Assembly: GCA_016296775.1 (NCBI GenBank)
Contig: JAEDIE010000003.1
Span: forward strand, 127 to 64,126
Source: Bacilli bacterium
Lineage (GTDB): Bacteria > Bacillota_I > Bacilli_A > RFN20 > CAG-826
Reading direction: 5' to 3'
Length of the DNA: 64,000 nucleotides
Shown in pieces: positions 2,158 to 47,000 of this stretch; position 1 is the stretch's first letter; each line of letters begins with the position of its first letter. The notes beneath the pieces are model-generated. The model had not been told where the DNA came from. It did no database searches and saw nothing but the letters and a program-made list of their open reading frames with translations. The position numbers were made by a program, and so were the translations under genes.

Positions 2158-2612
2158 AAGTTAATTGAACTTGATAATACATTAAACTCAAATTGAGTTA
2201 TACTATTTTTGTTTTGAATAGAAAATACTAAGTAATTCAATGTATCTTTATAATAATTTCTATCTAAACTATTTTTTAAAAATATATCTTTAATACTTAT
2301 AGTTGGTAAAAAATATATGTTTTTCCCATCTATTTTGTATGTGTAGTAACTATTAACATCAAATCTATATAGTTCTGTATTTGTCTTAAAAGATAATGAA
2401 ACTTTATCAATTGCTTCATTGTTAAGAAAAGAAAGAATGTATTGCTCATTGACTATTAATTTGTCTTCTTTAATTTCAGCATTATTCAAAAGAAGTGGAA
2501 TTTCATTATGTTTTTTAGAGATTGGATGAGTAAATAGATAGAAAATTAGGATACATATTAGGACAATTAGTATTACTATTCCATCTACAATTAATACCTT
2601 TTTGAGTTTCAA
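2154..2612 (-). CDS. Hypothetical membrane-anchored protein
   Basis: Single N-terminal TM helix (VDGIVILIVLICILIFYLF). ATGA overlap with the upstream gene 2609..3559. No recognisable motif. Confidence 0.55.
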   Translation of the reverse strand: MKLKKVLIVDGIVILIVLICILIFYLFTHPISKKHNEIPLLLNNAEIKEDKLIVNEQYILSFLNNEAIDKVSLSFKTNTELYRFDVNSYYTYKIDGKNIYFLPTISIKDIFLKNSLDRNYYKDTLNYLVFSIQNKNSITQFEFNVLSSSINF

Positions 2613-3559
2613 AATATAATAGAACTATTACTTAAGGAAATGCCTGTTACATCTTTAAGCTTAAGCTTTAAAGATTGAGTTTCAGTAAGTAATAGTTTTT
2701 CTCCTTCAAATAGTCTTCCTCTAAATATGAAATTTTGTTCTTTAAGATGTGCTACATATAATTCTTTTTCTTCAATGTATTCGTTTCCTAAAAATATATC
2801 GGCTTCAAGATCGTTTTTGATATTGTTCATTAAAATAGTTGTTGAAAATGTTGAGGTATTATTTAGTAATCCTGTTAAATAATTTACTACACAATTATAG
2901 TTAATCGTTTTTCCTGTACCATCGTAAGGAATAGTGTTGTATCCTGGTTCACCATTTTCAGGATAAATATCTACATTCATTTTTAAATTAGAATACTCTT
3001 TGTCAAGTGAATATATTGGAGAATAGTTTACAGAATAACTACTCTTAACATAATCTCCCTCACTTATAAAAGAGTTAACCCCACTTAAACCATAATTTAT
3101 ATAAAAATCTGTAGAAACAACCTTCTTTTCATAGTCAATTGTACATGATGCTTTGATATCTGGATAGTTTGTTGAGCTACAAGTTATAACGATTTGTTCG
3201 CCAAAAGCTTGAAGCAATTTTATATTACAAATTGTTAGATCATTACTATCTACAGTTAATTTTAAATATTCATTAACATTTTTTCCATTTGCCCATTCAC
3301 TTGAAGGATCTTTAAATGTAGATGACCATTCAACAGATTTGTTGAAGTTATATTCAGGATATACAGTAGCAATTAGTTTATATTCTGTATCGCTAATTTT
3401 CTCACTTTTAATATTGTTGTTTTTGATAATTAATGGAGAATTATTGTCTTCTTCAACATTATTTTTGTTTGATGTAGATAAAGCTATACATCCTCCTATT
3501 GTTAATAAACAACCAACGCAAGCTAAACTTATACATAGTATTTTTGTTCTTTTTTTCAT
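2609..3559 (-). CDS. Hypothetical membrane-anchored or lipoprotein, possibly with an Ig-like (Big_2-like) domain
   Basis: Signal/lipobox-like ISLACVGCLLTIGGC. The segment LIATVYPEYNFNKSVEWSS...ITCSS resembles bacterial Ig-like group 2 domains (weak). Confidence 0.55.
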   Translation of the reverse strand: MKKRTKILCISLACVGCLLTIGGCIALSTSNKNNVEEDNNSPLIIKNNNIKSEKISDTEYKLIATVYPEYNFNKSVEWSSTFKDPSSEWANGKNVNEYLKLTVDSNDLTICNIKLLQAFGEQIVITCSSTNYPDIKASCTIDYEKKVVSTDFYINYGLSGVNSFISEGDYVKSSYSVNYSPIYSLDKEYSNLKMNVDIYPENGEPGYNTIPYDGTGKTINYNCVVNYLTGLLNNTSTFSTTILMNNIKNDLEADIFLGNEYIEEKELYVAHLKEQNFIFRGRLFEGEKLLLTETQSLKLKLKDVTGISLSNSSIIF

Positions 3560-3706: not shown

Positions 3707-4597
3707 ATGTTTAAAATTATTGCTGATTCAACTAGCGATTTATCATTAGAATTAAGAAATAAATACAATCTTGATTATTGCCAAATGGGAATTACATGTG
3801 ATGATAAAGAGTATGTAGCTGATTTAGATTACAAAGAATATAGTGCTAAAGAATTATATGATTGGATGAGAAATGGTAAAAGAGTTTTTACATCTCAAGT
3901 ATCTGATAATGAATTTAGAAGAGTATTTACAAAATATTTAGACCAAGGAATTGATGTTTTATATATTGCTTGTAGTAGTGCATTAAGTGCTTCATATCTT
4001 GCTTCTTTAAAAGTAAGAGATGAATTACTTGCTTTATATCCAGAAAGAAAAATTGTTTGTATTGATTCAAAGATTTCTTGTATTGGACAAGGAATGATTT
4101 GTATTGAAGCTAGTAAACTTAGAGATAAAGGAATGACTTTAGAAGAAGTAGTTGAATGGATTGAAGCTAATAAATTAAAGTTTAATCAATTTGCAACTGT
4201 TGATAGCTTAGAATATTTAAGAAGAGCTGGTAGAGTCAAAGCTTCTAAAGCTTTTTTTGGTAATTTATTTGGTGTTAAACCATTATTAATTAGTGATGTT
4301 AAGGGTAGAAATTTTGCTTTCAAAAAGGCTAAAGGCAAAGTTAAAGCAATTAATGAATTAGTTGATTTAGCAATTGAAGCAATGGATGGAAATTATTCTC
4401 AAACTGTTTATATTGGACATGCTGATTCTCTTGATGAAGCATTATTAATTAAAGAAAAATTACACGAAAAAGTACCTGAAATTACTAATTTTGAAATTGG
4501 TTTTATTGGTCCAATTGTTGGTGCATCAACAGGCCCTGGAACATTAGGTATTTTTGTTTTTGGTAAAGAAGTAACATTAGACGAAGAAAGCGAGTAG
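3707..4597 (+). CDS. DegV family fatty-acid-binding protein (FakB-like), paralogue 1
   Basis: Typical DegV start KIIADSTSDL, plus TSQVS, LEYLRRAGRV and GPGTLGIF motifs. GGAGG RBS. Immediately upstream of fakA. Confidence 0.9.
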   Translation: MFKIIADSTSDLSLELRNKYNLDYCQMGITCDDKEYVADLDYKEYSAKELYDWMRNGKRVFTSQVSDNEFRRVFTKYLDQGIDVLYIACSSALSASYLASLKVRDELLALYPERKIVCIDSKISCIGQGMICIEASKLRDKGMTLEEVVEWIEANKLKFNQFATVDSLEYLRRAGRVKASKAFFGNLFGVKPLLISDVKGRNFAFKKAKGKVKAINELVDLAIEAMDGNYSQTVYIGHADSLDEALLIKEKLHEKVPEITNFEIGFIGPIVGASTGPGTLGIFVFGKEVTLDEESE

Positions 4598-4602
4598 TTT
4601 TT

Positions 4603-6258
4603 ATGGTTTATACAAGCGTTGATGGTTCCCTTTTCAAGGGTATAGTTTTAAATGGCTATAATAATTTAATTAAAGATATGGTTGAGATTAATAATCTCAA
4701 CGTATTCCCTGTTCCAGATGGTGATACTGGAACAAATATGAAGAAAACTCTTGAAAACGGAATTAATAATATTACTTTCAACAATGAAGAAGAAAAAATT
4801 GGTGAAGTAAGTAATTTACTTGCTAAAGGTATGTTACTTGGAGCAAGAGGAAATAGTGGAGTTATTCTTTCTCAATATTTTAAAGGTATTGCAAAATACT
4901 TAATTAATAAAGATATAGCTAGTGTTAATGATATGGTTGAAGCATTCACTGAAGGTTATAGAACAGCCTACAATGCAGTAGTTACTCCAACCGAAGGAAC
5001 AATTTTAACTGTGGCTAGAGAAGGAATTGAACTTATAAAAAATAAGATTAATGAAAATACAACTTTTAATGAATTATTAGATTTAATGTATAAAAGAATG
5101 GAACAATCACTTGAAGAAACACCTGAAAAGCTATTTGTATTAAAAGAAGCTGGCGTTGTAGATAGTGGTGGAGCTGGATTAATCTCTATTTTTAAAGGTA
5201 TGATAGCTTATTTAAATGGAGAAAAAATTGATGCAGATAATAAAGATAATAATTCAAATACTGTAAAATTTGATCCAAGTTTATTTAATGCTGATAGCGA
5301 ATTAACATATGGCTATTGCACCGAATTTATTCTTCAATTATTGAATAAAAAATGTAATCCTGAAGAAGTAAAAATTGATGATTTTATTGGTTATCTTTCT
5401 ACAATTGGAGATTCAATTGTTGCTATTAAAGAAAACGATATTATTAAAATTCATGTACATACAAAAACCCCATCAAAAGCAATTGAATTTGCTCAAAAGT
5501 ATGGTGAATTCATCACTTTTAAGTTGGAAAATATGGCAATTCAAAACAATGAAGTTAACCAAAGAAAAGGAATTAAAAAAGTAAAAGTACATAAGAAAAC
5601 AGCTTATGTTTCTGTAGCTAATGGTGATGGAGTCCAAGAAACATTTAAAGAACTTAATTGTGATGAAGTTTTAAATGGTGGACAAACCATGAATACTAGT
5701 TGTGAAGAATTTATTGATGCTTTTAAAGAAATTGATGCAGAAAACATTATTGTTTTACCAAATAATAAGAATATTGTTATGGCAGCAAATCAAGCTAAAG
5801 AAATGTATAAAGATGCTTCAGTTTTTGTTATTCCAACTCGTAGTATTGCTGAAGGTTATTATTCTTTATCAATGATGATTGATCCAAATGCAGATATTGA
5901 AGATCAAGTAGGTTCAATGAGCGATGGTTTAGAAGATTTCATTACTGCTGAAGTTACTTATTCAATTAGAGATACAGTTGTTAATGGATTAGAAATTAAA
6001 AAAGGAAATTACATTGGAATTGTTAATAATAAGTTAGTTACTACACATACTTCAGTATTAGAATGTTTAAAAGATATGATTGATTCAATTGAAGATTTTG
6101 ATGAAAAATCAATCGTTACCATTTTTGTTGGTCAAAGTGCTGATGGGAATGATGCTATTGAATTAAAGAAATATATTCAATCAAAGAATAAATACGTTGA
6201 TATAGGAATTATTAGTGGTAAACAAGATGTTTACGACTTTATATTAGGAATTTGCTAA
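4603..6258 (+). CDS. fakA: Fatty acid kinase catalytic subunit FakA (DAK2 domain fusion protein YloV family)
   Basis: N-terminal DhaL/DAK2 motifs NVFPVPDGDTGTNM and GARGNSGVILSQ. About 550 aa with a C-terminal YloV-type domain. Sits between degV and plsX. Confidence 0.85.
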   Translation: MVYTSVDGSLFKGIVLNGYNNLIKDMVEINNLNVFPVPDGDTGTNMKKTLENGINNITFNNEEEKIGEVSNLLAKGMLLGARGNSGVILSQYFKGIAKYLINKDIASVNDMVEAFTEGYRTAYNAVVTPTEGTILTVAREGIELIKNKINENTTFNELLDLMYKRMEQSLEETPEKLFVLKEAGVVDSGGAGLISIFKGMIAYLNGEKIDADNKDNNSNTVKFDPSLFNADSELTYGYCTEFILQLLNKKCNPEEVKIDDFIGYLSTIGDSIVAIKENDIIKIHVHTKTPSKAIEFAQKYGEFITFKLENMAIQNNEVNQRKGIKKVKVHKKTAYVSVANGDGVQETFKELNCDEVLNGGQTMNTSCEEFIDAFKEIDAENIIVLPNNKNIVMAANQAKEMYKDASVFVIPTRSIAEGYYSLSMMIDPNADIEDQVGSMSDGLEDFITAEVTYSIRDTVVNGLEIKKGNYIGIVNNKLVTTHTSVLECLKDMIDSIEDFDEKSIVTIFVGQSADGNDAIELKKYIQSKNKYVDIGIISGKQDVYDFILGIC

Positions 6259-7205
6259 TGAAAAAAGTAATTATTGATTTAAATTCTAGTGAAACTAATT
6301 ATGAAGAGTTCTTATTAGGTATTGAAGAATTCTTAAAAACTAATACTAAATATAGAATTGTTTTAGTTGGAAATACATTACAAGCTAAACACATTTTATC
6401 TTCTAGAAATGTAGCTTTTTCATATATAGATTTTTATGATGTGAAAGAAACCTTATTAGATGAAGATAATCCTACTTTAGTATTAAAAGAAAAGAAAAAT
6501 ACTAGTTTAGTTAAATCAATTGAATTACTTAAAAAAGATGATGAAGCTATTGGATTAGTATCAGCTGGTCCAACTGGAGGATTATTAATTTCATCGATAT
6601 TCCATTTAGGATTAATGAAGGGTTTAAAAACCCCTTGTTTATCTAGTGTTTTATATTCATTTGATAAAAAGCCATTTATTTTAGTAGATTGTGGGGCAAA
6701 TTTAGAATTAGATGTAAATACATATGTTAAATTTGGAGAAATAAACTCAAAATATGCTTCAGCTTTATGTTCTTCCTATCCTCGTGTTGCTTTGCTTAAT
6801 GTTGGCAAAGAAAGTAGAAAAGGCAATGCAATTTTAAAAAATGCTTATGAAGCTTTACAAAATGATCAAAATATAAATTTTGTTGGAAATATTGAAGGTT
6901 TTGATATCTTTTTAAATAAAGCTGATGTAGTTTTAACTGATGGAATTACTGGAAATATTGTTTTAAAACTTGCTGAAAGTATGGCTCATGGAATTCAAGA
7001 TATGTATACACCTTTAATTAAAGAAGAAAAGAGAAAAGACGTTGATAAATTTATTGAAGATAATTTTTACTATTCTTCAAAAGGTGGAGCAATGTTACTT
7101 GGAGCTAAAAAACCAATTATTAAATTACATGGTAAAAGCCAAGCTAGTGCTGTAACTATTTGTATAAATAGACTTATTGAAATTAATGAAGGTTTATCTG
7201 ATTAA
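6258..7205 (+). CDS. plsX: Phosphate acyltransferase PlsX
   Basis: Motifs GPTGGLL, VDCGAN, NIEG and TDGITGNIVLK. The ATG at 6258 overlaps the fakA stop (TAATG). The ORF-track start at 6252 is a TTG. Confidence 0.9.
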   Translation: MKKVIIDLNSSETNYEEFLLGIEEFLKTNTKYRIVLVGNTLQAKHILSSRNVAFSYIDFYDVKETLLDEDNPTLVLKEKKNTSLVKSIELLKKDDEAIGLVSAGPTGGLLISSIFHLGLMKGLKTPCLSSVLYSFDKKPFILVDCGANLELDVNTYVKFGEINSKYASALCSSYPRVALLNVGKESRKGNAILKNAYEALQNDQNINFVGNIEGFDIFLNKADVVLTDGITGNIVLKLAESMAHGIQDMYTPLIKEEKRKDVDKFIEDNFYYSSKGGAMLLGAKKPIIKLHGKSQASAVTICINRLIEINEGLSD

Positions 7206-7822
7206 TGGAACAAGATTTAAAAGTATATTTACTAAAAATAGATAGATCTATACCAAAAAATGCCTTAAAAGAATTTCTAAATATCTCAATTGTTAATCAT
7301 TGTTTAAAATATAAATTAGAGCAAAAACAATATGAATCCCTGTATGGTTTTTACATTTTAAGGAAATTATATTTAAAGTTATACAATATTGATATTAATA
7401 ACTTTATATTGGAAGAAAATTTATTTGGTAAACCTTATTTTAATTCATTATATTTTAATATTTCAAATTCAATGGGATATTTAGCAATAGCAATTTCCTC
7501 AAAACAAGTGGGAATTGATATTGAATTTTTATATAATTTTAAAAAAGATAAAGCTTTTGAAAGAATGATTTTATCTTCAAAAGAATTAAAAGAATTTAAT
7601 AAAACCGATGATAAAAATTTATATTTATTAACTAAATGGTGTCAAAAAGAAAGTTATTTTAAATATATTGGAAAAGGAATAAATTTTCCTTTATTAAAAA
7701 CAAATATTAGAAAAGAAGGCTATTTTAAATACTTTAATTTAAATAATGATTTGGCATGTGTTTATGTTTATACTAAACATAAAGTAAATGAATTTAAGGT
7801 TGAATTAAATTATAATGAGTAA
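7205..7822 (+). CDS. 4'-phosphopantetheinyl transferase, Sfp-type
   Basis: GKPYF...FNISNS (variant of FN.SHS), VGIDIE, and W..KESYFKYIGKG motifs. TAATG overlap with plsX. Confidence 0.7.
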   Translation: MEQDLKVYLLKIDRSIPKNALKEFLNISIVNHCLKYKLEQKQYESLYGFYILRKLYLKLYNIDINNFILEENLFGKPYFNSLYFNISNSMGYLAIAISSKQVGIDIEFLYNFKKDKAFERMILSSKELKEFNKTDDKNLYLLTKWCQKESYFKYIGKGINFPLLKTNIRKEGYFKYFNLNNDLACVYVYTKHKVNEFKVELNYNE

Positions 7823-7825
7823 TAT

Positions 7826-9748
7826 ATGAAAGAGAATATAAATAAATTAGTTAAAGAAAGAGATAGGATGTTAAATAATTCAAAAGATTTTGAATCCTTA
7901 TTTAGCATCATTTTCCATCAAAAAGACAAAATTGCTTGTGAATATATATTTAATCACCAAATTCAACAAGTTACATTCCTAGAATTAGAACAAAAAATAG
8001 ATAATTTTGCATTTTCTTTAAATAAAAAATATCCATTTCTTCAAAATGAAATTATTGGAATATATTTTGAAACTAATATAAATTGGTTAGTTTCTTTTTG
8101 GGGAATATTAAAAAGTGGAAATATACCTTATTTAATTAATTTAAAACAACCATCTTCATTAATTAATGATTCTTTTAATTTAATTAATTGTAAGTATTAT
8201 GTTTCGTCTAAAGATCAAAATATTAATTGTTCATTTATTAATTTTTATGATTTAAATCTTCAAAAAGAAGCTGGATTTACATATAAATTTGCTGATGAAA
8301 TAATTCTTTCAAGTAGTGGAACAAACATGAAGTCTAAGTTATGTTTTTATTCAGGAGAACATATTATTAATCAACTTTTATGTTATAAAGAATTATATAA
8401 AGGAAATAAATTATTAAAGAAACATTATAAAGGTAAACTTAAACTTTTAGCCTTTATTCCTTTTTATCATATATTTGGTCTTATTGCTTCATATTTATGG
8501 TATGCTATCTTTTCACGTACAGTTGTATTTATTGAAAACTTAAGCAGCGAATGTATTATTAATACTATCCAAAAATGTGAAGTTACTCATATTTTTTCTG
8601 TTCCATTATTTTTTGAAACAGTAGAAAAAGAAGTATATAAAGCAATTAAAGTTCAACCAGAAAAAACAAAGAAAAAACTTAAAAAAGGTATGAAAATAGC
8701 TACTATTTTACAAAAAATTAATCCTATTTCAGGTTTGAATTTATCAAGAAAAATGTTTAAACAAATTAACAATTCTTTATTTGGAAATAGTGTTCAAGTA
8801 ATGATTAGTGGAGGAGGATTTATTAAAGATTCTACACTCCAATTATTTAATCTTTTAGGATATCCTTTAGTTAATGGATACGGTTTAACTGAACAAGGAA
8901 TCGTATGTTTAAATAATGCATATAACTTTAATAAAAGAATTGAAAACACAATAGGTAAACCATTTTCAAATGTAACTTTTATAATTAATGAAAATAATGA
9001 ATTAATTATTAAATCTAATTGCGGAGCTTACAAAATCATTGAAGAAGGTTTGATAATTGAAAATATAAATGAATTTAACACTCATGATTTAGTTAAAATT
9101 AAAGATGGAAACTATTACATTTTAGGAAGAGAGTCAGATTTAATAATTGAAAGTAGTGGAGAAAACATTAATCCTAATTTAATTGAACAAAAACTAGATC
9201 TTAAAAATGTAATTGATTTTTCTGTTTTAGGATTAGAATTTGAAGAAAAAGAAGTTCTTTCTATTGTCATAGAAATATCAAAATTAACTTTATCAAAACA
9301 TATAGAAGACATTTTGTTATGTATAGAAAATTATAATAAAGAAGCCACATTTACATATCAAATTAAGAAAATTTTATTTACAAACGATCCTATTAAAGCA
9401 CCAAATGCTATTAAAGTTAGTAGAAAATATTTAAAGAAATTAATTAAAGAAAAACAAATAACAGTTTTTAATTCATCTTCATTTAAAGAAAATAAAAATA
9501 ATGATGAAGAAATTAATTTAGAAATTTTAAATAATATTAAAAAAATAATAGCTAAAGAAATAGACATTGAAATTAATAAAATAGGCGATGAATCAAATAT
9601 TATTTTTGATTTAAATGCTAATAGTATTGAATATATTTCAATAGTTAGTGAAATCAATAAAGAGTATGGAATTGATATGAAATTTGATGATGAATCAAGT
9701 TTTTATACACCAAAAGAACTAGCTAAAAAGGTAATATCTTTATTATGA
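7826..9748 (+). CDS. Adenylate-forming enzyme (acyl-CoA/acyl-ACP synthetase-like) fused to a C-terminal carrier-protein (PP-binding) domain
   Basis: Divergent AMP-binding core: SSGTNMKSK (A3-like), NGYGLTE (A5), GRESDLIIESSGENINPNLIE (A8). The C-terminal 80 aa look like an ACP with DLNANSIEY in place of DLG.DS. Confidence 0.75.
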   Translation: MKENINKLVKERDRMLNNSKDFESLFSIIFHQKDKIACEYIFNHQIQQVTFLELEQKIDNFAFSLNKKYPFLQNEIIGIYFETNINWLVSFWGILKSGNIPYLINLKQPSSLINDSFNLINCKYYVSSKDQNINCSFINFYDLNLQKEAGFTYKFADEIILSSSGTNMKSKLCFYSGEHIINQLLCYKELYKGNKLLKKHYKGKLKLLAFIPFYHIFGLIASYLWYAIFSRTVVFIENLSSECIINTIQKCEVTHIFSVPLFFETVEKEVYKAIKVQPEKTKKKLKKGMKIATILQKINPISGLNLSRKMFKQINNSLFGNSVQVMISGGGFIKDSTLQLFNLLGYPLVNGYGLTEQGIVCLNNAYNFNKRIENTIGKPFSNVTFIINENNELIIKSNCGAYKIIEEGLIIENINEFNTHDLVKIKDGNYYILGRESDLIIESSGENINPNLIEQKLDLKNVIDFSVLGLEFEEKEVLSIVIEISKLTLSKHIEDILLCIENYNKEATFTYQIKKILFTNDPIKAPNAIKVSRKYLKKLIKEKQITVFNSSSFKENKNNDEEINLEILNNIKKIIAKEIDIEINKIGDESNIIFDLNANSIEYISIVSEINKEYGIDMKFDDESSFYTPKELAKKVISLL

Positions 9749-11007
9749 GTAACTTACTATATTTTTTAACAACTTTTAGTGCGGTAATTCCTAATTTAAT
9801 TTACTTTACTAGAAGAACATATTATGAAAATAAGAAATCTCAAGGAAGATTCATTAAAGGAAGAGCAATAATTATATCAAATCACATTTCAATTATTGAT
9901 TATATGATGTTGATTTTTGTTTTCTTTACTAGAAAAATTAGATGCTTAGTTGCAAGTGTTGTTTTTAAAAAGAACAAAATGTTAAATCTTTTACTTAAAA
10001 TGTGTGGAGCAATTAAAGTAGAAAGAGAAAGCTACGATTTATCTTTTATTCAAAAATCTATTGATACATTAAACAAAAATAAAGTCTTATTAATATTCCC
10101 TGAAGCAAGATTAGATAAAGATAAATCTAAAATTAGAAACTTCACAACCTCATACATTTTATTAGCATTAAAAACAAAATCCCCTATTATTCCTGTGTAT
10201 AATGATGGAAATTATGGATTTAATAAAAGAGTACATTGTATGATTGGAGAAAAAATATATTTAGATAAATATATTGATAACGATAATCCTACAAAAGAAG
10301 AACTAGAATATTTAAATAAAATAGTCATGTCTAAAATTAAAGAATTGAAGAATAAAACTATCAAAAATATTGAAGAAGATAAAGAAAAAAGGTATACCTT
10401 TAAAAAGTTTTTAGGTGATTTTGGAAGAATTAATTTAGGTTGGTTAATTAGACTTAAAGGAATAAAAGTTCATTATAAAAATGTTGATAAATCCATATTA
10501 AAATGCAAAAAACCATTTATTATATGTGCAAATCATACTGGATTTAGTGACCCTCCAATATTGATGGGATTATTTTATAAAAGAAGGATGAATATTTTAG
10601 CAGCGGATATTATCTTTAAAGATCATAAAGTTAGAAGTTACTTTTTAGAAGCAGCAGGTTGTATTTCAATTAATAGAGAATCGTTAGATTTTAATGCAAT
10701 AAAACAATCTTTAAATGCTTTAAATCATAATAGAATCCTCACTATTTTTCCTGAAGGAAGAATTGAAACAGAAGATAAAATGAATAGTTTAAAAGGTGGA
10801 GCAGTTTTACTTGCTACATTAGCTAAAGTAGATATATTACCAATATTTATCAAAAGAAAAGAGAACAAAAAAGACAAAGTTGAAATTGTTATTGGTCCTT
10901 TTGTTGAAATTGATAAAAATAAAGTTTATAGTCTTAAAGATGTTGATGAATTAACATTATCATTATTTAATGAAATAAAATCATTGAGGGAAGAAGTTGT
11001 TAAATGA
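9745..11007 (+). CDS. Tandem double-domain lysophospholipid/glycerol-3-phosphate acyltransferase family protein (2 x PlsC/LPLAT)
   Basis: Two complete motif sets. The first is NHISIID (HX4D), KVERES and IFPEARL. The second is NHTGFSD (HX4D), SINRES and IFPEGRI. ATGA overlaps on both sides. Confidence 0.8.
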   Translation: MSNLLYFLTTFSAVIPNLIYFTRRTYYENKKSQGRFIKGRAIIISNHISIIDYMMLIFVFFTRKIRCLVASVVFKKNKMLNLLLKMCGAIKVERESYDLSFIQKSIDTLNKNKVLLIFPEARLDKDKSKIRNFTTSYILLALKTKSPIIPVYNDGNYGFNKRVHCMIGEKIYLDKYIDNDNPTKEELEYLNKIVMSKIKELKNKTIKNIEEDKEKRYTFKKFLGDFGRINLGWLIRLKGIKVHYKNVDKSILKCKKPFIICANHTGFSDPPILMGLFYKRRMNILAADIIFKDHKVRSYFLEAAGCISINRESLDFNAIKQSLNALNHNRILTIFPEGRIETEDKMNSLKGGAVLLATLAKVDILPIFIKRKENKKDKVEIVIGPFVEIDKNKVYSLKDVDELTLSLFNEIKSLREEVVK

Positions 11008-11249
11008 AAAAAGAAGAAATATTAAATAAAATTATTGATATTTATGAAAACATAATTGGTGAAGAGGTAGATAAGTCTATTTTTACTTTAGAAAGCAATA
11101 TTAAAAATGATTTAGGCATCAATTCAGTAGGTCTTTTATATTTAATTGTCGATATAGAAAAAGAATTTGATGTAGTTTTACATAATCAATCAATTGAAAA
11201 ATTTGTAACATTAAATGATGTAGTTACATATATTGAACAAAATATTTAG
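11004..11249 (+). CDS. Acyl carrier protein-like (81 aa)
   Basis: ACP size and helix pattern. DLGINSVGLLYLIVDIEKEF corresponds to DLG.DS...VEL...E.EF, with the Ser retained. Confidence 0.75.
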   Translation: MKKEEILNKIIDIYENIIGEEVDKSIFTLESNIKNDLGINSVGLLYLIVDIEKEFDVVLHNQSIEKFVTLNDVVTYIEQNI

Positions 11250-11250
11250 T

Positions 11251-12231
11251 TTATAAATCGTGATTAGTTAAAAAACAATCAATAGTTTTATCATATTCAG
11301 GAGCTTGATTAATTCTTATATGAGAATGGGCTCCTTTTTTAAAATCATTTCTTTCTTTGTTTTTACTTCCACAAGCTTCATATACTCTTTTTTTCATATC
11401 ATCTAGAACAAATTTATCTTCACTTGAATATAAGAAAAGTATAGGAATATCAATTTTAGGAAGATAATTTAAAGGGCATTCTTTATAAATATCAGCTTTA
11501 GTATATTTTTTTAAATAATACATAACTTCTCTACATACTGGGAAAACAGGATGATGATCAGCAATCATATGATTTTTAAATATTTCATAAAAATTAGTAA
11601 ATAATCCATCAGCTACAATACAAGAAATTAAATTTTCTTCTTCTTTAGCTTTAGCAAATACACTAGTTGCAGCACCAATACAAATACCATGTAAAATAAT
11701 ATTTTTGTTATCAAATTTATCTTTCAACAATTTAGCCCAAGCTAAAATATCTTTGTATTCATCAACTCCAATAGTATCAAAATAACCTTCGCTTAACCCA
11801 TGACTTCTATTATCAATAACTAGAACATTTGTGCCATGATTATAGTAAGGGATAGCAAAATAATAAGAATAAAGTAAAGATTCTGTTCTGCCTGGAATAA
11901 TAATTACACAAGTAGAAGAGTTATTATTTAAATATTTTCCAACTAATTTAAAACCTTCACTAGTAATTGATACATCTATAAAATTTTTATCTAAACTCCA
12001 ATTTATTCCAGTTTCATACATTTTAACTTGTTCTTCATTAGTTGTATCGCTACATTCTCTCCCCCATTTATCATAAGGTTCTCTAACAAGAAAAGTAAAA
12101 TATACTTTTTTTGCAATTTTTAGTGTATAAAGTAAGAAAGGTAATATAAAAATTAAGAAAAATAATACTATACTACCTAAAACAATTAATAAAATAAAAT
12201 ACCATTCCATACTTTGATATTGTATTAACAA
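11251..12231 (-). CDS. Membrane-anchored alpha/beta hydrolase with a Cys in the nucleophile elbow (G-I-C-I-G)
   Basis: N-terminal TM helix. HGICIGAAT aligns with DGVSMGATT of the paralogue at 27775..28716. Asp (SSEDKFV) and His (GAHSH) are retained. The track start is a TTG; the first ATG is at 12210. Confidence 0.7.
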   Translation of the reverse strand: MLIQYQSMEWYFILLIVLGSIVLFFLIFILPFLLYTLKIAKKVYFTFLVREPYDKWGRECSDTTNEEQVKMYETGINWSLDKNFIDVSITSEGFKLVGKYLNNNSSTCVIIIPGRTESLLYSYYFAIPYYNHGTNVLVIDNRSHGLSEGYFDTIGVDEYKDILAWAKLLKDKFDNKNIILHGICIGAATSVFAKAKEEENLISCIVADGLFTNFYEIFKNHMIADHHPVFPVCREVMYYLKKYTKADIYKECPLNYLPKIDIPILFLYSSEDKFVLDDMKKRVYEACGSKNKERNDFKKGAHSHIRINQAPEYDKTIDCFLTNHDL

Positions 12232-12362
12232 ATAAATATAATTTCAAATCAATTATAAACACAAAAATTAAATTAAACTTAAATATTAAATTATAAATAT
12301 TTTTAATATTTATATTTAATCTTCATTTGATATAATTAAAATCAGAAGGAGAGGATTTGTTT

Positions 12363-13295
12363 ATGAATAAATTTATAATTTTACCAGATGTAACTTGTGA
12401 TTTAAGTGATGAAACAAGAGAGAAGTTTAATTTAAAAGATTATATTCCTTCACACATTATTTTACCTGATGGAAGTGAAAGAACAGGAAAGCTTAAATGG
12501 GACTGGATAACATCAACTGAATTTTATAAAGCTATTAAAAAGAAAAATAATGGATATTCAACAAGTCCTGCTAGTATTGAAGAAATAAAAGAAAAATTTA
12601 AATTTTATCTTGATCAAGGATATGACATTTTATTTATGTCAATTTCTTCAAAATTAAGTGGAACTTATAATTTTGGAGTTAAAGCTAGTGAAGAATTGCT
12701 CCCTCTTTATAAAGATAGAAAAATTCTTTGCTTTGATTCATTAAGATATTCTCTTTGCTTTGGTTTACTTGTCACCAAAGCATGTGAATTTAGAGATAGA
12801 GGATTATCACTTGAAGATACCTATGATGAATTAATAAAATTAAGACCATGTGTCCATCAAATGGGACCTATGGAAGATTTATTTTTCCTTGCTAGCAAAG
12901 GAAGAATTTCAAATGGCAAAGCCTTTATGGGTAATTTAATTGGTATTAGACCATTAGGTGACATCAATAATGTTGGGACAACCACTGTTTTAGGAAAAGC
13001 TAAAGGTAAGAAAGCAGCTATTGAAGCTACTGTCAAATATATTGAAAAAACTATTGTGAATCCAAAAGATCAATATATTTTTATAGCCCATACTGAAAGA
13101 GAAGAGGAAGCAAACCTTTTAAAAGAAAAGATAGAAGAAAGAATTGCTCCAAAAGGTATTATTATTAATGAATGCTATTGTATGACTGGTACAAACATTG
13201 GCCCAGGATTATATGCTGCATATTATATTGGAAAAGAATTAAGTGAAAATCTTGTTGAAGAACAACAAATAATGAACGAAATTCTTGGAAAATAA
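12363..13295 (+). CDS. DegV family fatty-acid-binding protein, paralogue 2
   Basis: DegV motifs (ILPDVTCDL, STSPAS, GRISNGKAF, GPGLYAAYY). ATG at 12363 is preceded by AGGAGAGGA. The track start at 12357 is a TTG. Confidence 0.9.
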   Translation: MNKFIILPDVTCDLSDETREKFNLKDYIPSHIILPDGSERTGKLKWDWITSTEFYKAIKKKNNGYSTSPASIEEIKEKFKFYLDQGYDILFMSISSKLSGTYNFGVKASEELLPLYKDRKILCFDSLRYSLCFGLLVTKACEFRDRGLSLEDTYDELIKLRPCVHQMGPMEDLFFLASKGRISNGKAFMGNLIGIRPLGDINNVGTTTVLGKAKGKKAAIEATVKYIEKTIVNPKDQYIFIAHTEREEEANLLKEKIEERIAPKGIIINECYCMTGTNIGPGLYAAYYIGKELSENLVEEQQIMNEILGK

Positions 13296-13349: not shown

Positions 13350-13736
13350 ATGGAACGTAAAACTATGCAAAGAGATATTCTGCTTCATATAATTTTGAAA
13401 GCAGGTCATATTACCATTAAAGAGATTCTTGATGCCAACAAAAGAAATGGAAGAATCCCTGCAATGAGTGTAGGAACTATTTATCGAAATTTAGCAGTTC
13501 TTGAAGAGGAAGGTTTAATTAGAAGAATACCTACCATCTATAAAGAAGATGTTTATGAAGCTACGGATATACCAAGTCATGATCACTTTATTTGTAAAAA
13601 CTGCCATACCATCATTGATTTAGAAAGAGACAAAGAATTTAAGCCTTATTCTAATAAATATGGTGATAATGTGGAACAAGAAATAACAGTGTATTATGGA
13701 ACATGCGTTGATTGCTTAAATAAAAAAGTCTGTTAA
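13350..13736 (+). CDS. Fur family transcriptional regulator (PerR-like by context)
   Basis: Winged-helix N-terminus, SHDHFICKNC and GTCVDC Cys pairs. Located directly upstream of rubrerythrin. Confidence 0.85.
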   Translation: MERKTMQRDILLHIILKAGHITIKEILDANKRNGRIPAMSVGTIYRNLAVLEEEGLIRRIPTIYKEDVYEATDIPSHDHFICKNCHTIIDLERDKEFKPYSNKYGDNVEQEITVYYGTCVDCLNKKVC

Positions 13737-13880: not shown

Positions 13881-14423
13881 ATGAAACCAGAATTAAAAGG
13901 AACCCAAACAGAAAAGAACTTACAAACAGCATTTGCTGGTGAAAGTCAAGCTCGTAACAAATATACCTATTTTGCTAGCGTAGCTAAAAAAGAAGGCTAT
14001 GAACAAATTTCAGCCCTTTTCTTAGAAACAGCTGAAAATGAAAAAGAACACGCAAAAATGTGGTTCAAAGAATTAGGTGAACTTGGAAACACAGAAGCTA
14101 ACTTACTTGCTGCTGCTGAAGGCGAAAACTATGAATGGACAGATATGTATGCTGGATTCGCTGAAGTAGCTGAAAAAGAAGGATTCAAAGAAATCGCAGC
14201 TAAATTTAGATTAGTTGGTGCAGTTGAAAAACATCATGAAGAAAGATATAGAGCTTTAAGAGCCACACTTCAAGAAGGTAAAACTTTTAAAGGTGAAAAT
14301 GCACAACAAGTTTGGAAATGCAGAAACTGTGGATTTATCTATGTTGGAAAAGATGCTCCAGAACTTTGCCCATGCTGTGCTCATCCAAGAGCATATTTTG
14401 AAAAATATTCAAAAAATTATTAA
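13881..14423 (+). CDS. rbr: Rubrerythrin
   Basis: Diiron four-helix motifs (E..A...[15 protein letters not shown]) plus a C-terminal CRNCG...CPCCAHP rubredoxin-like domain. Confidence 0.9.
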
Positions 14424-14439
14424 TTATTAAATAAATAGG

Positions 14440-15324
14440 TTGGTGTTGTTTGTGTTGCGTAAAGTCGTTTTAGTTACGGATTCATGTTCCGATTTACCAT
14501 TAAAGCTGGTTAATGACTTAGAAATTCACGTTATTCCAATGCATTTTGCATTTAATGGTGTAAGTTATTTAGATTTTCCTACTCATAAAGAAATGAGTGT
14601 GAATGATTTTTATGACCGCTTAAGAAATAAGGAAGTAGCTATTACAAGCCAAGCAACAATAGAAGACTGTTTAAATGTAATTAGACCACTTGCTAATGAA
14701 GGAGATGATATCATTTGTTTAGGGTTTTCTAGTGCTTTAAGTGGAACTGTTAACTCCATGAGATTGGTTGCTAACATGATTAAAGATGATTATCCAAACA
14801 TTAACATTACTGTTATTGATACTTTATCTGCTTCATTAGGAGAGGGTTTATATGTTTATTTAGTAGCTAAAAAGATTAAGGAAGGATATGATTTTTTCAA
14901 AGCTAGTGAATATGCATTAAGTTTACAAAATAAGATTCTCCATTATTTTACTGTTGATGATTTAGGTACACTTAAAAGAGGTGGAAGATTATCTGCTTCA
15001 AAAGCTTTCTTAGGATCAATTTTAAATTTAAAACCTATTCTTCATGTTGATACAAATGGAAGACTCGTTCCAATTGGTAAAAAGATTGGAAGAAAACAAA
15101 GTCTAAATTGTTTAATCGAAGCTTTTAAAGAAAAATGTACTGATCCATCAATTATTTTTGTTTCTCATGGATCTTGTTATAAAGATGCTGAATATGTAAA
15201 GAATAAAATCGTTGATTTATATCCAAGCATTAACGAAGTTGTAATTAGTGATATTGGTCCAGTTATTGGAGCTCATAGTGGTCCTGGCACCGTAGCTTTA
15301 TTCTTTATAGGAAAGGAGAGATAA
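14440..15324 (+). CDS. DegV family fatty-acid-binding protein, paralogue 3
   Basis: VLVTDSCSDL, TSQAT, LKRGGRLS and GPGTVALFF motifs. The start is uncertain (TTG 14440, or GTG 14452 / TTG 14455). Confidence 0.88.
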   Translation: MVLFVLRKVVLVTDSCSDLPLKLVNDLEIHVIPMHFAFNGVSYLDFPTHKEMSVNDFYDRLRNKEVAITSQATIEDCLNVIRPLANEGDDIICLGFSSALSGTVNSMRLVANMIKDDYPNINITVIDTLSASLGEGLYVYLVAKKIKEGYDFFKASEYALSLQNKILHYFTVDDLGTLKRGGRLSASKAFLGSILNLKPILHVDTNGRLVPIGKKIGRKQSLNCLIEAFKEKCTDPSIIFVSHGSCYKDAEYVKNKIVDLYPSINEVVISDIGPVIGAHSGPGTVALFFIGKER

Positions 15325-20719: not shown

Positions 20720-21121
20720 ATGTTTTGTAGAAATTGTGGTAAAGAATTAAAAGCTGAATATAATGTTTGTCCAAATTGTGGATGTGTTATTAATAATGAC
20801 AATATTCCTGCTAGCAAAGTTGATGTTACTTTAAAAAAAGAAAAGGTTTCAAGACCACCTATGTCAGCAATGGCAATAGTTGGTTTTGTTTTTGGAATTT
20901 TAGGATTTGAAAGTTGTGCGATTTTGTCGATTCCTGGTCTTATCCTTTCTATAATTGCCTTTAACCAAATTAAAAAGGGCGGCTATAGAGGAAAATCTTT
21001 TGCCCTTGCTGGAATAATTACAAGTGCTATTTCTTTAGGTTTATGGGTTATACTCTGGGCATTTTATATTGGATTACTTGGAACAATTTCAGCACCACAA
21101 TACGCTTTATTTTTAGGATAA
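20720..21121 (+). CDS. Zinc-ribbon / DUF4190-type small membrane protein
   Basis: N-terminal CRNCG...CPNCG zinc ribbon and two C-terminal TM helices of the DUF4190 type (GFVFGILG...). Confidence 0.65.
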   Translation: MFCRNCGKELKAEYNVCPNCGCVINNDNIPASKVDVTLKKEKVSRPPMSAMAIVGFVFGILGFESCAILSIPGLILSIIAFNQIKKGGYRGKSFALAGIITSAISLGLWVILWAFYIGLLGTISAPQYALFLG

Positions 21122-27774: not shown

Positions 27775-28716
27775 ATGAGTGAATTAGAATTAACTTTAAC
27801 TATTGTTTTTAGTGTAATTGGCGGATTACTTCTATTATTTTTAATTTCAGTTATTGCGTTATCTTATACTTTTTTTCATATTGGTTTTAAAAGAAAGAAT
27901 GTTAATGAATATACAGCCATTATTTACGATGCTCCAAAAGATAAATATCACTGGTTTGAAAGTTGTAATACAACTGATGTAAGTATTAAAACTTTTGATT
28001 CTTTAAATTTAACAGCCAAATTTGTTAAAAACGAAAAGAGTAACCATTTATACTTTTTAACAATTCATGGTTATCATGGTATGTTTATTTCTCGTATGCC
28101 AATTGCAAAAGTTGCTTTTGATAAATATAACGCTAATGTTTTAGCTATTAATATGAGAGGACATTATACTAGTGAAGGAAAATATAACTCATTAGGATAT
28201 TTAGAAAGTAAAGATCTTCAATGCTGGATTAATTTTATTATTGAACAGGATAAAGATGCTCGAATTATACTTGATGGAGTTTCAATGGGAGCTACAACAA
28301 TCATGTATCGTTTAGATGAGATTGATTCAACTCATGTAATTGGTGCAATTTGTGATTGTGGATTCTACTCATTTTATGAAGAAATCTTAAAAGATTATAA
28401 GAAGTTTAATAAATATTTATTTCCTTTTTCTAAAATGTTCTTAAGACCATTTTATAGAGCTAGATATAAAGTAGCTTTAAAAAGTTTAAATTGTTTTAAA
28501 GGTTTAAATAATAGTAAAATACCAGTTTTGTTTATACATGCTGAAGATGATCCAGTAGTACCTTATAGTGACCATGTAAAAGAATGTGAAGTTTTTTCTA
28601 AGGATACTAAAATGGAAATTCTACGTTTTAAAGATGGTGGTCATGCTCGTACTTTTTATAATCATAATGAAGAGTATGTTGAAGCTATGACTAAATTTAT
28701 TGATGAAATTATATGA
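27775..28716 (+). CDS. Membrane-anchored alpha/beta hydrolase (Ser nucleophile)
   Basis: N-terminal TM helix, HGYHG oxyanion region, GVSMGA nucleophile elbow, AEDDPVVP Asp, and GGHA His. Paralogue of 11251..12231. Confidence 0.8.
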   Translation: MSELELTLTIVFSVIGGLLLLFLISVIALSYTFFHIGFKRKNVNEYTAIIYDAPKDKYHWFESCNTTDVSIKTFDSLNLTAKFVKNEKSNHLYFLTIHGYHGMFISRMPIAKVAFDKYNANVLAINMRGHYTSEGKYNSLGYLESKDLQCWINFIIEQDKDARIILDGVSMGATTIMYRLDEIDSTHVIGAICDCGFYSFYEEILKDYKKFNKYLFPFSKMFLRPFYRARYKVALKSLNCFKGLNNSKIPVLFIHAEDDPVVPYSDHVKECEVFSKDTKMEILRFKDGGHARTFYNHNEEYVEAMTKFIDEII

Positions 28717-28730
28717 AAGAAGGAGTGAAA

Positions 28731-30479
28731 ATGAAAAAAAGTTTAATATTTTGTACTTTGCCGTTACTTTTATCTTTAATTTCAGGTTGTAATAGTAATT
28801 CTCAAGGAAACGATGAAGTTATTACTAAAAAGAAATTAACTATTTTAGCTGATGACGCTATTAGTTATGTTCCTTTAAATAGTGAATATTTACCAGGAGA
28901 AAGCGTTACTTTTCAAATAACTAGTTTAAAATTATCTAGCCAAGAATATAAAGTGTATTTGAATGATGAAGCCTTAGTTGGAATGACTGAAACAACATAT
29001 ATTTTCACCATGCCGAATAAAGATTCTACATTAAAAGTTGAATTAAAAAATATTACTAAAAAAATTAATTTTGAAGATAGTGACAAGTTTAATGTTAGTG
29101 TTAAAGATAACTTGAGTGAAGCCTCTATAAATCAAGAAGTTTTCTTTAACTTTGAGATTAAAAATGAATATGTAAATGATATCAACTTAAAAGCTATTGA
29201 AGCTTATTATTATGTTCAAGATGTAAAAACAAATTTTAATCTAACAATAAATTCAATTAGTGATTATAAGTATAGTTTTATTATGCCTAACTATGATGTT
29301 TATCTTAAACCAGTATATGAAACTATTCAAAAATATAAAGTTACTTTAAAAGAAACAGATAACATCAAAATTAAATTAATCAATAATAAAACAGATTATC
29401 AAGAATTTGAAAAAGTTACTTTCACATTAGAAATTAAAAACGAAGCAAGATTAAAAGAGGTAGTTGCTATTGATGAAGAAGGAAGTAATTTACCTGTTTT
29501 ATATGAAAATAACGAATATTCTTTCTATATCGGAAACAAGAATGTAACTATTGAAGTTAAAGAAAAATCCAATGAACTTTATTTAGTTACTTCAATTGTT
29601 AAACCAAAATATGGAACAGTTAGTTTTGTTGATGGAAAAACAGAATATTATGAAGGTGATTTAGTATCTTTTAAAATTACAACTTCAGCCGGATATAAAG
29701 TTAAAGGGTGTAATTTATATGACATTTCTTTAGAAAGTGTAGCTACAACTGTAAGATATGATTCATCAACTGATACATATTATTTCACTATGATTGATCA
29801 AGATTTATATTTGGATGCAGAATTTAGTCAAATTTATGTAATTAATGTAAATAAACCTGAGACATTAGAATTAACTTATGTAGAAGAAAAAAGCTATTAC
29901 GTTGGAGGAGAAAAAGTTGAATTCACTGTTAAAAGTATAGATACTAATTTTGCTTTTGATAGTTTATCAATTACCTACTATAACGGAAGTAGTGATATAA
30001 AAGTAGATTATAACGTTAAAGATGGTGTATACTCTTTTTCAATGCCTACATTTAATGTAACAATCACATTAAATGATAGAGAAGTGAGTGCCCCATCTTC
30101 TAATCCATTTAATGATGTTAGTAAGTTCCAAGCAACTGTTAAAGAAACTTATTACGATGAATGGGATGATTATTACACCACAACATTAACTTTCAATTTA
30201 ACTTTTGATTTTAATGGTGATGGAACATTTACTTATACTGCATATTATGTAGAAGCTAAGGAGACAAAGAAAGTATTTGATCATTATACTTTTACATATA
30301 ATGAAGATACATTATGTCTTAATATGGCTTTAGGATTTTCTCAAGACGTTAAAAAAGATTATTTTAAAGCAATAAAAGATAGTGATGGAAACGTTAATAG
30401 TTTTAAAGCATTAATGGATATTGATCCACATAATGGAATTTATACTATAAAAACAAATACGATTTTTACAAAAATCTAA
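28731..30479 (+). CDS. Surface lipoprotein with five tandem beta-sandwich repeats of roughly 85-95 aa (divergent InlB B-repeat-like)
   Basis: Lipobox LISGC. The recurring pattern is V.F.(I/L)....(Y/F).(V/L)....(Y/F).F.MP..(D/N)V.(L/I). The ATG at 28731 follows AAGGAG; the track start at 28713 overlaps the upstream stop. Confidence 0.75.
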   Translation: MKKSLIFCTLPLLLSLISGCNSNSQGNDEVITKKKLTILADDAISYVPLNSEYLPGESVTFQITSLKLSSQEYKVYLNDEALVGMTETTYIFTMPNKDSTLKVELKNITKKINFEDSDKFNVSVKDNLSEASINQEVFFNFEIKNEYVNDINLKAIEAYYYVQDVKTNFNLTINSISDYKYSFIMPNYDVYLKPVYETIQKYKVTLKETDNIKIKLINNKTDYQEFEKVTFTLEIKNEARLKEVVAIDEEGSNLPVLYENNEYSFYIGNKNVTIEVKEKSNELYLVTSIVKPKYGTVSFVDGKTEYYEGDLVSFKITTSAGYKVKGCNLYDISLESVATTVRYDSSTDTYYFTMIDQDLYLDAEFSQIYVINVNKPETLELTYVEEKSYYVGGEKVEFTVKSIDTNFAFDSLSITYYNGSSDIKVDYNVKDGVYSFSMPTFNVTITLNDREVSAPSSNPFNDVSKFQATVKETYYDEWDDYYTTTLTFNLTFDFNGDGTFTYTAYYVEAKETKKVFDHYTFTYNEDTLCLNMALGFSQDVKKDYFKAIKDSDGNVNSFKALMDIDPHNGIYTIKTNTIFTKI

Positions 30480-30489
30480 GGAGATAAAT

Positions 30490-33804: not shown

Positions 33805-33809
33805 TTAAA

Positions 33810-34817: not shown

Positions 34818-34819
34818 AT

Positions 34820-46767: not shown

Positions 46768-46877
46768 ATATTTTTAATAAAAAACTATATGAAATCACTG
46801 TTATTTTTAAAATAATAAATAAAACAAAACAATAAACGAATTATTTAATTTATTAATTAAAATTAATAATATATAAT

Positions 46878-46966: not shown

Positions 46967-47000
46967 TTTATTTCCTACCTCTTGTTTAAAGGAGGGATTT

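Follow-up and report, generated by a model that had tools for sequence, protein, structure and literature searches.

What may be achieved by genes able to activate an acid, to hold it on a carrier protein and to pass it to a lipid, if they are placed immediately behind the genes of fatty acid kinase? The question is raised by the stretch of DNA analysed here, 64 kb of contig JAEDIE010000003.1 from a Bacilli bacterium (hereafter the window; ~27% G+C, cleanly read with the standard bacterial code). On its plus strand, positions 3707-11249 are taken by seven open reading frames (ORFs) with intergenic space near nil, in the order fakB-fakA-plsX-PPTase-ADE-CP-ATa/ATb-ACP, where the three genes of the FakAB-PlsX pathway are followed by those for a 4′-phosphopantetheinyl transferase (PPTase), an adenylation enzyme with its own carrier domain (ADE-CP), an acyltransferase with two domains (ATa and ATb) and a free acyl carrier protein (ACP). 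We propose, with a probability of about one half, that this module serves to esterify membrane glycerolipids with exogenous fatty acids via protein-bound thioesters, in a manner resembling Aas of E. coli and wired into the Fak/PlsX route.

The operon opens with fakB (3707-4597), coding for the DegV-family fatty-acid-binding subunit (PF02645 217.7 bits, TIGR00762 227 bits) and separated by 5 nt from fakA (4603-6258) for the catalytic subunit of fatty acid kinase (Dak2, FakA-like_M and FakA-like_C domains; TIGR03599 550.7 bits), which is in turn overlapped by plsX (6252-7205) for acyl-phosphate:ACP transacylase (PF02504 192 bits; TIGR00182 196.8 bits, under the equivalog cut-off of 243). All three pass Pfam thresholds, and fakA also passes that of the YloV subfamily. 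The TAA of plsX shares one base with the ATG of the PPTase gene (TAATG; 7205-7822, 205 aa), 3 nt separate the latter from ADE-CP (7826-9748, 640 aa), and ATGA overlaps join ADE-CP to ATa-ATb (9745-11007, 420 aa) and ATa-ATb to the ACP gene (11004-11249, 81 aa). The original prediction, made from the letters of the window, had delimited the last four genes as an acylation module, and direct reading together with Pfam and NCBIfam searches returned the same coordinates and junctions, the same domains (PPTase, AMP-binding with PP-binding, double PF01553, ACP) and all the motifs quoted (FNISNS, SSGTNMKSK, DLNANSIEY, NHISIID/FPEARL, NHTGFSD/FPEGRI, DLGINS). It had also listed domains missing from this locus, which stands for condensation, ketosynthase and malonyl-transferase domains, found neither among the Pfam matches of the operon nor in the rest of the window, but not entirely for thioesterases, as a thioesterase-like fold is encoded next door (11251-12231). 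The module is the most AT-rich part of the window, with 21-24% G+C over 6001-12000 and the lowest bin (0.213) at 8001-10000, other bins being mostly at 25-32%; promoter and terminator scans are uninformative in such AT-rich DNA (58 promoter-like sites versus 74 expected).

The activating step would fall to ADE-CP, the adenylation part of which (ANL type, residues 1 to ~545, 7826-9460; PF00501 94.1 bits) is followed by a C-terminal carrier domain (CP; residues ~565-640, 9518-9748; PF00550 25.4 bits over residues 571-633, cut-off 20.8) with the attachment Ser in DLNANS. Homologs are counted in hundreds, with full-length representatives of 626-695 aa at 33-71% identity, nearly all of them combining PF00501 and PF00550. 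The A3 loop is divergent (SSGTNMKSK in the window protein, STSATxLKEK in the family consensus). Nevertheless, across 28 diverse family members T166 (A3), E356 (A5), D421 (A7), R435 (A8), K530 (A10) and the carrier S600 are invariant, and invariant positions of this kind bind Mg, ribose and adenylate in ANL enzymes. Because these residues are retained, genuine adenylating activity is predicted for ADE, its unusual P-loop notwithstanding. The degenerate A3 loop had also suggested an ANL enzyme taking Fak-made acyl-phosphate instead of ATP, a possibility set aside as the main reading, given that the A10 Lys and the residues contacting ribose and Mg never vary. The AlphaFold2 (AF2) model (pLDDT 86.8) combines an ANL fold with a helical-bundle carrier, and the A4 motif FIPFYHIFG aligns with PFHHGFG of luciferase, i.e., it belongs to the acyl/aryl-CoA-synthetase type. 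The CP profile matches fatty acid synthase (FAS)-type ACPs in PDB (~1e-11 to 1e-12), and the N-terminal 130 residues of ADE-CP weakly match PRK06334, a long-chain-fatty-acid--ACP ligase model; models of Aas and AasS are not among the top 25 NCBIfam matches, and all matches lie far below curated cut-offs. Foldseek returned McyG A-PCP, 4-chlorobenzoate ligase, MenE, MatB and EntE-EntB at ~1e-23 with 14-20% identity, a range at which all ANL classes tie, and neither the PDB profile search nor Foldseek assigns a substrate or subfamily. A helical insertion at approximately residues 260-317, lacking from both luciferase and MenE, was considered as a mark of a long-chain acyl-CoA synthetase subfamily: residues ~240-345 of the window protein and of four homologs gave only chance-level matches in NCBIfam, for which reason we call the insertion family-specific and uninformative on subfamily.

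The protein encoded next carries two lysophospholipid acyltransferase (LPLAT) domains of PlsC fold, ATa (9745-10374; NHISIID, FPEARL) and ATb (10375-11007; PF01553 stretch at residues 246-370; NHTGFSD, FPEGRI). The acyltransferase assignment made for it from its HX4D motifs is upheld by PF01553 with 128.5 bits over two stretches. Catalytic residues are invariant in the family (N46, H47 and D52 in ATa; N263, H264 and D269 in ATb), and both domains keep HX4D, the motif II Arg ((V/I)DR), FPEG-type and PIIPV-like motifs. An AF2 model built from an alignment of database homologs (pLDDT 85.3) shows two PlsC-fold domains joined by long helices, with PlsC of T. maritima (5KYM) as the best Foldseek match in PDB, followed by PatA, LpxM and glycerol-3-phosphate acyltransferases. 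The whole protein exceeds the cut-off of TIGR00530, the model of 1-acylglycerol-3-phosphate acyltransferase (AGPAT), with 118.8 versus 102.95 bits, because the scores of two domains add up; taken alone, ATa has 58.8 and ATb 65.9 bits, and the E. coli PlsC equivalog PRK15018 gives 19 bits versus a cut-off of 501. Each half scores the LPLAT domain of Aas-type acyl-[ACP]-phospholipid O-acyltransferases about as well as AGPAT, PRK08633 and PRK08043 matching both halves and PRK08633 giving 55.3 bits for ATa alone. By score, ATa tends to the Aas type and ATb to the AGPAT type; matches to OlsF and OlsA are weak. Where Clostridia have two separate acyltransferase genes, the first is in every case the ortholog of the N-terminal half and the second that of the C-terminal half.

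The arrangement recurs far beyond the window. Scanning of 185,579 GTDB genomes, one representative per species, gave at least 555 matching stretches, and HMMER with the double-acyltransferase profile gave 418 protein clusters (50% identity) at E <= 1e-30; the module is thus a widespread family of gut Bacillota found in several hundred species. The closest named homologs of ADE-CP come from metagenome-assembled genomes labelled Candidatus Onthovivens or Mollicutes bacterium, and the farther ones from Acholeplasmatales, Erysipelotrichaceae, Lachnospiraceae, Oscillospiraceae and Acutalibacteraceae. ORFs were classified in 80 species loci around the adenylase, 65 of them informative downstream and 35 well flanked (>=8 kb to either side). 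The order of the genes, which recurs in 80 of 80 loci and thereby goes far beyond chance, does not vary: ADE-CP comes first, then ATa, ATb and ACP, and usually a protein of the LRAT family, with both acyltransferase domains in 61/65, ACP in 55/65 and LRAT in 46/65 downstream-informative loci; ATa and ATb are fused as in the window in 24/65 and encoded by two genes elsewhere. Within ~12 kb of the module, fakA was detected in 33/35, plsX in 30/35 and a family 2 glycosyltransferase (GT2) in 30/35 well-flanked loci. ATa always comes after ADE-CP, and where only one acyltransferase is present (L024, L040, L065, L090 and L093) it is ATa. In L049 and L084 the ADE-CP gene has no recognisable adjacent acyltransferase, for which another genetic code, a frameshift or true loss may account. 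Small zinc-ribbon proteins, most with a C-terminal transmembrane segment (DUF4190-like), directly adjoin the module in ~25 loci (e.g., L029 8541-9026, L088 12293-12733, L002 11536-11724); the copy of the window (20720-21121) is a weak homolog (E 0.007) at a distance of 9.5 kb.

The neighbourhood comparison called for by the original prediction brought out three usual extra partners, namely a Cys-type hydrolase, an LRAT-like protein and an MFS_2 transporter. The hydrolase gene of the window (11251-12231, minus strand; Hydrolase_4 and Abhydrolase_1 matches) faces the ACP gene tail to tail, a single base separating their stop codons, and encodes a membrane-anchored alpha/beta protein with one N-terminal hydrophobic segment (residues 6-42) and Cys in place of Ser in the nucleophile elbow (HGICIG; in general H-[GSTA]-[IV]-C-[IV]-G). 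Its best solved relative is the Pyrococcus esterase 5G59 (1e-11). A hydrolase of this type occurs in 37/80 loci, and the copy of the window is likely a partner of the module. In Clostridia it is paired in 11/35 loci (e.g., L001, L016, L002) with a PF01522/DUF3473 deacetylase; the best NCBIfam match of the deacetylase is that of the XrtA/PEP-CTERM system, and the Cys-hydrolase weakly matches exosortase-associated hydrolases. Exosortase A loci are said to hold an AMP-ligase and an ACP, and may be a distant parallel. The LRAT-like Cys-His proteins (120-140 aa, PF04970) keep HYGIF...NCEHF and, having neither signal peptide nor transmembrane segment, are presumably cytoplasmic. They recall the LRAT/PLAAT Cys-His acyltransferases and S. 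aureus LnsA (NlpC/P60-type lipoprotein N-acylation) in that the module of relatives ends in, or is fused to, such a protein, the window itself having none. LnsAB takes the sn-1 chain of phosphatidylglycerol as donor (PMC13559823), a reaction that should leave a lysolipid, the kind of substrate that Aas-like systems repair.

The third partner, an MFS_2 (PF13347) transporter of the major facilitator superfamily (MFS), lies inside the operon in many lineages and in at least five arrangements: 5′ of fakB in L006, a close relative of the window and the second-best match (47% ADE identity); between fakA and plsX in L012, L013 and L022; between fakA and ADE in L024, L040 and L065; and 3′ of the acyltransferase in L086 and L087, where the fusion genes described below each precede the same MFS_2 gene. 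All four MFS homologs that were fetched blind to context adjoin ATa and an alpha/beta hydrolase, clearly of the Cys type in three of them. Among these loci, L090 has the order fakB-fakA-MFS-ADE-CP-ATa-hydrolase, L093 repeats it without fak genes and beside FabK-like and FabZ-like genes, L092 (9001-12013) has fakB-fakA-MFS-ATa-hydrolase without ADE-CP, and L088 (9001-10650) contains MFS_2 fused to an ADE-type carrier (549 aa) without adenylation domain, which means that the carrier can be charged in another way. The transporter looks dedicated to the module. Its sequence retrieves no useful PDB relative, and among solved transporters nothing beyond SUC1 at E 0.03. Fusions tie the components together still closer: P0229 (L086, 3522-6827) is a single ORF of 1101 aa with the composition ADE-CP-ATa-ATb, 29% identical to the ADE of the window over full length, P0219 and P0227 are LRAT-ATa-ATb proteins (one of them in L087, 5202-6911, 569 aa), and P0294 from a high-G+C organism looks like a CP-ATa fusion. 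Two forms of the operon are observed, a short one of MFS_2, optional ADE-CP, ATa and Cys-hydrolase, and a long one with the addition of ATb and ACP, often of LRAT, PPTase and plsX, to which the window belongs, without LRAT or MFS.

The PPTase of the window is of the Sfp type by its size, half-domains and motifs (FNISNS, VGIDIE, WCQKES). PF01648 gives 45.5 bits (cut-off 25), a match to AASDHPPT_N is weak, and the best NCBIfam models are the Sfp-type AusB, HetI and AcpT, all under cut-off. A homolog lies within ~12 kb of the adenylase in 11/35 well-flanked loci, and the enzyme is presumed to prime both carriers. The free ACP (PF00550 30.3 bits; DLGINS) shows the same identity, 32%, with E. coli AcpP as with the CP domain, the best AcpP-type NCBIfam score being 47.6 bits versus a cut-off of 66 and that of TIGR00517 38.3 versus 70.45. 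Helix II differs between the two carriers and is conserved within each (DLG[AG][TS]SL[DQ]YF in CP, D[LI]G[IL]NSIG[LF]LY in ACP; in short, SLDYF versus NSIGLLY), from which different partners are suggested for CP and free ACP. In the 35 well-flanked loci plsX and free ACP are both present in 30 and both absent from 4, ACP being found alone in one, and in Bacilli-type operons plsX is inserted between fakA and ADE exactly where ACP comes after the acyltransferase. Since free ACP tracks plsX in this way, its loading from Fak-made acyl-phosphate is more likely than loading by the adenylase. AcpB of E. faecalis, encoded 3′ of plsX, is a preferred acceptor of chains derived from acyl-phosphate (PMC6509188) and is likewise a divergent second ACP encoded with plsX and serving exogenous fatty acids; it differs from the ACP of the module in being mainly a carrier of the regulatory ligand (for FabT) in a host with type II fatty acid synthesis (FASII), with no adenylase, dedicated acyltransferases or PPTase. 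In this point the original hypothesis has to be corrected: its composition and its Aas-like logic stand, but free ACP is probably fed by PlsX rather than by the adenylase.

In E. coli, the MFS flippase LplT hands lysophospholipid to the LPLAT domain of Aas, and the acyl donor is made on the spot by the acyl-ACP synthetase domain of the same protein (PMC11416262); LplT-Aas has so far been identified in Gram-negative bacteria only, and Gram-positives take up and acylate lysolipids (PMC11416262, PMC9815629). The module has in common with Aas the coupling of ANL-type acyl activation to a PF01553 LPLAT via a protein-bound acyl thioester; its acyltransferase halves match Aas-type models, adenylase and acyltransferase share one chain in P0229, and relatives of the window add an MFS transporter, as LplT accompanies Aas. 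Aas was therefore rightly pointed to as the nearest known logic. Unlike Aas, the module has the reverse domain order with domains on separate genes in the window, a carrier covalently fused to the adenylase instead of the soluble AcpP borrowed by Aas, two LPLAT domains, an extra free ACP, a dedicated PPTase and the link to Fak/PlsX. The adenylase is not an Aas ortholog, remaining under all NCBIfam cut-offs, and the transporter of the relatives is of the MFS_2 type, whereas LplT is of the MFS_1 type. Adjacent genes of Chlamydia trachomatis for the acyl-ACP synthetase AasC (CT776) and the lysophospholipid acyltransferase LpaT (CT775) serve to incorporate host fatty acids (PMC6167442) and similarly separate activation from lysolipid acylation, but AasC has no carrier domain and charges AcpP of the cell, the acyltransferase is single, and Chlamydia has FASII and no Fak/PlsX link. 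Didomains of adenylation and carrier parts (A-PCP and fatty acyl-AMP ligase-ACP proteins, with McyG A-PCP and EntE-EntB as examples) have the same two-domain architecture as ADE-CP and supply its best whole-chain structural matches; identity is, however, only 14-16%, and the module has LPLATs as acceptor enzymes and no ketosynthase or condensation domains 3′ of it. No description of the module was found in the full-text literature searched around its components, in line with the original statement that no characterised system of this composition was known. What appears to be new is an Aas-like acylation with an adenylase-carrier that loads itself, a doubled acyltransferase and a tie to fatty acid kinase.

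What the data establish is how the domains are composed and the operon built, that the catalytic motifs are intact, and that the module is widely conserved, with fusions and joint occurrence of its parts. From an architecture that repeats the logic of E. coli LplT-Aas, split likewise in Chlamydia, we infer the acid activated, its acceptors, the pairing of carriers with acyltransferases and the physiological role. PPTase would convert both carriers to the holo form. ADE-CP would adenylate a carboxylic acid, with long-chain fatty acids as the most likely candidates, and load its own carrier in cis, after which ATa would pass the CP-bound acyl group to a lyso-glycerolipid in the inner leaflet. 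In parallel FakB and FakA would make acyl-phosphate, from which PlsX would move the acyl group onto free ACP, and ATb, the more PlsC-like of the two domains, would use this acyl-ACP to add a second acyl chain, the acceptor being lysophosphatidic acid or a 1-acyl lysolipid. The Cys-hydrolase probably supplies deacylation or transacylation, a side of the process to which LRAT would add in relatives, and MFS_2, where relatives have it, probably imports or flips the lysolipid. The whole would represent a Lands-cycle-like system of salvage and repair; the two successive O-acylations and the private carrier of the original hypothesis are likewise conjectural. By way of context, the window has three fakB genes, and over its 64 kb no fab, acc or plsY gene, no CDP-alcohol phosphatidyltransferase motif and no further PF01553 gene was detected. 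Going further, and with the odds rather against it, one might tentatively regard the module with MFS_2, LRAT and Cys-hydrolase as the functional Gram-positive counterpart, long looked for, of LplT-Aas, i.e., a carrier-based Lands cycle with position-specific re-acylation (ADE-CP to ATa and Fak/PlsX/ACP to ATb), which would be the main route of building and repairing membranes from dietary or host lipids in gut Bacillota devoid of FASII, uncultured Acholeplasmatales- and Onthovivens-like lineages among them.

Several observations weigh against the proposed Aas-like route. The highest-ranking structural and sequence matches of ADE-CP (MenE, 4-chlorobenzoate ligase, MatB and McyG) activate aryl or small acids, acyl-ACP synthetase AasS has only rank 43 in the Foldseek search with the ADE-CP model, and the enzyme is about equidistant from all solved ANL enzymes, its acid not being readable from sequence. 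ATa can draw acyl groups from elsewhere, as follows from the loci without adenylation domain (L088) or without ADE-CP (L092). The pairing of ATb with ACP is not strict, because ATb persists in Acholeplasmatales-type loci that have neither plsX nor ACP in the vicinity. The PlsC fold serves acylation of glycolipids and lipid A as well (PatA, LpxM), and neither MFS_2 transporter nor LRAT is encoded in the 64 kb of the window. Finally, the census drew its 80 loci from the nearest relatives of the query, which biases its fractions towards the type of the window.

Among other explanations, the one that survives best is a housekeeping role: the genes would be the only ACP, PPTase and PlsC-type lysophosphatidic acid acyltransferases of a FASII-less cell, kept beside plsX, an arrangement (plsX...acpP) that is ancestral in Bacilli, with an ordinary AasS-like acyl-ACP synthetase topping up the same pool and no special remodelling. 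It would account for co-transcription with fakB-fakA-plsX, for the joint occurrence of plsX and ACP, for the PlsC-like fold and motifs of both acyltransferase domains, for the location of the module amid housekeeping genes (e.g., holB and tRNA methyltransferases) in some Lachnospiraceae, and for the window itself, whose 64 kb contain no second gene for an ACP, a PF01553 protein or a PPTase. Loss of FASII, which bears on this role as on the main proposal, is documented for RF39, an order of uncultured gut Bacilli (PMC6784871); the organism of the window is not placed in RF39. The FakAB/PlsX/PlsY/PlsC pathway of Firmicutes resembles the operon in its start, fakB-fakA-plsX, and in the PlsC fold and motifs of the acyltransferases. 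On the other hand, the module is without plsY, adds an AMP-forming route with its own carrier, and has acyltransferases that are doubled and far under the AGPAT cut-off in each half (59-66 versus 103 bits), the E. coli PlsC model being barely matched; ACP is under all AcpP cut-offs and PPTase is of the Sfp type rather than AcpS. The fused carrier, the LRAT and MFS fusions and the constant Cys-hydrolase are foreign to the PlsX/PlsY/PlsC pathway, and the short-form operon of L093 adjoins FabK-like and FabZ-like genes, hence the module is not confined to FASII-less genomes. We consider a purely housekeeping role doubtful.

An alternative of another kind is a specialised envelope lipid, for which either an unusual acid would be loaded or the acceptor would be other than a phospholipid (glycolipid or aminoglycolipid, anchor of lipoteichoic acid, lipoprotein, or an acyloxyacyl "piggy-back" ester as in ornithine lipids). 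A dedicated Sfp-type PPTase with two non-canonical carriers, the aryl or small acids activated by the nearest solved relatives of ADE-CP, the weak OlsF and OlsA matches and the presence of PatA and LpxM among structural matches would all fit such a product, as would the neighbourhoods of Clostridia with their GT2 (30/35) and the deacetylase associated with the Cys-hydrolase (11/35). Both GT2 and deacetylase are, however, absent from the window, and the tight, near-universal link is with fakA, fakB and plsX, i.e., with ordinary long-chain fatty acids. The motif II Arg kept in both acyltransferase domains would accord with the phosphate-bearing acceptors of LPLATs, and an architecture resembling LplT-Aas, MFS transporter and fusions included, speaks for lysophospholipids. 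A specialised lipid is plausible, though much less likely than the Aas-like route. Loading of D-alanine or another amino acid, with its subsequent esterification to a lipid or polymer by the acyltransferases, is hardly credible and was rejected together with the NRPS reading, for although an adenylase with a small carrier resembles DltA/DltC and one database record labels an ADE-CP homolog "non-ribosomal peptide synthetase", the acyl/aryl-type A4 motif has no counterpart of the alpha-amino-binding Asp of FDxS carried by amino-acid-activating domains, the PDB profile search ranks DltA (8e-10) far behind MenE (7e-24), against the DltA-type affinity that would have refuted the original hypothesis, the carrier domains resemble FAS-type ACPs, and no DltB (MBOAT), DltD or condensation domain is found in the window or in the 80 loci.

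Outside the operon, the window contains two further fakB paralogs on the plus strand, at 12357-13295 (PF02645 174 bits), a position likewise occupied in relatives L005 and L006, and at 14440-15324 (PF02645 232 bits), so that three DegV/FakB proteins are encoded within 12 kb. The second and third are separated by genes for a Fur-family regulator (13350-13736) and a rubrerythrin (13881-14423), the latter being found just 5′ of fakB in L088 too. Divergently from the first fakB lies a gene for a lipoprotein with a lipobox signal peptide (2609-3559, minus strand), in the position of the MFS_2 transporter in L006, and the window starts with a NUMOD1/treble-clef endonuclease-like ORF (17-664) and a CotH-kinase-family ORF (736-2157). 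A second membrane-type alpha/beta hydrolase with an ordinary Ser elbow (GVSMG) is encoded at 27775-28716 (plus strand), right after the prolyl-tRNA synthetase gene, its homologs being the "ABHw" copies that Acholeplasmatales loci have close to fakB. Large surface proteins with BspA-type leucine-rich repeats (1104 aa, 396 bits) or Listeria-Bacteroides repeat domains are encoded at 28713-36259, a run typical of host-associated wall-less or reduced Bacillota. At 46872-48675 a thiamine pyrophosphate (TPP) riboswitch (65.5 bits) precedes genes for a ThiT/YuaJ-like thiamine transporter with an N-terminal extension and for thiamine pyrophosphokinase, which suggests salvage of thiamine rather than its synthesis.

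Fatty acid synthesis is missing from many abundant, uncultured gut Bacillota, which have to build their membranes from scavenged lipids, and the enzymes employed beyond FakAB/PlsX are largely unassigned. Uptake of lysophospholipids with their re-acylation is known biochemically in Gram-positives, for instance in the use of lysophosphatidylcholine by streptococci, and the module is a possible Gram-positive Aas. The operon offers a concrete candidate, present in several hundred species, physically tied to fatty acid kinase and composed of clonable components. If the Aas-like reading is true, it would introduce a new route of acyl activation by a self-loading adenylase-carrier, would help to explain how membranes are assembled in fatty acid auxotrophs and guide the choice of media for their cultivation, and would supply targets affecting the bypass of FASII-directed antibiotics.

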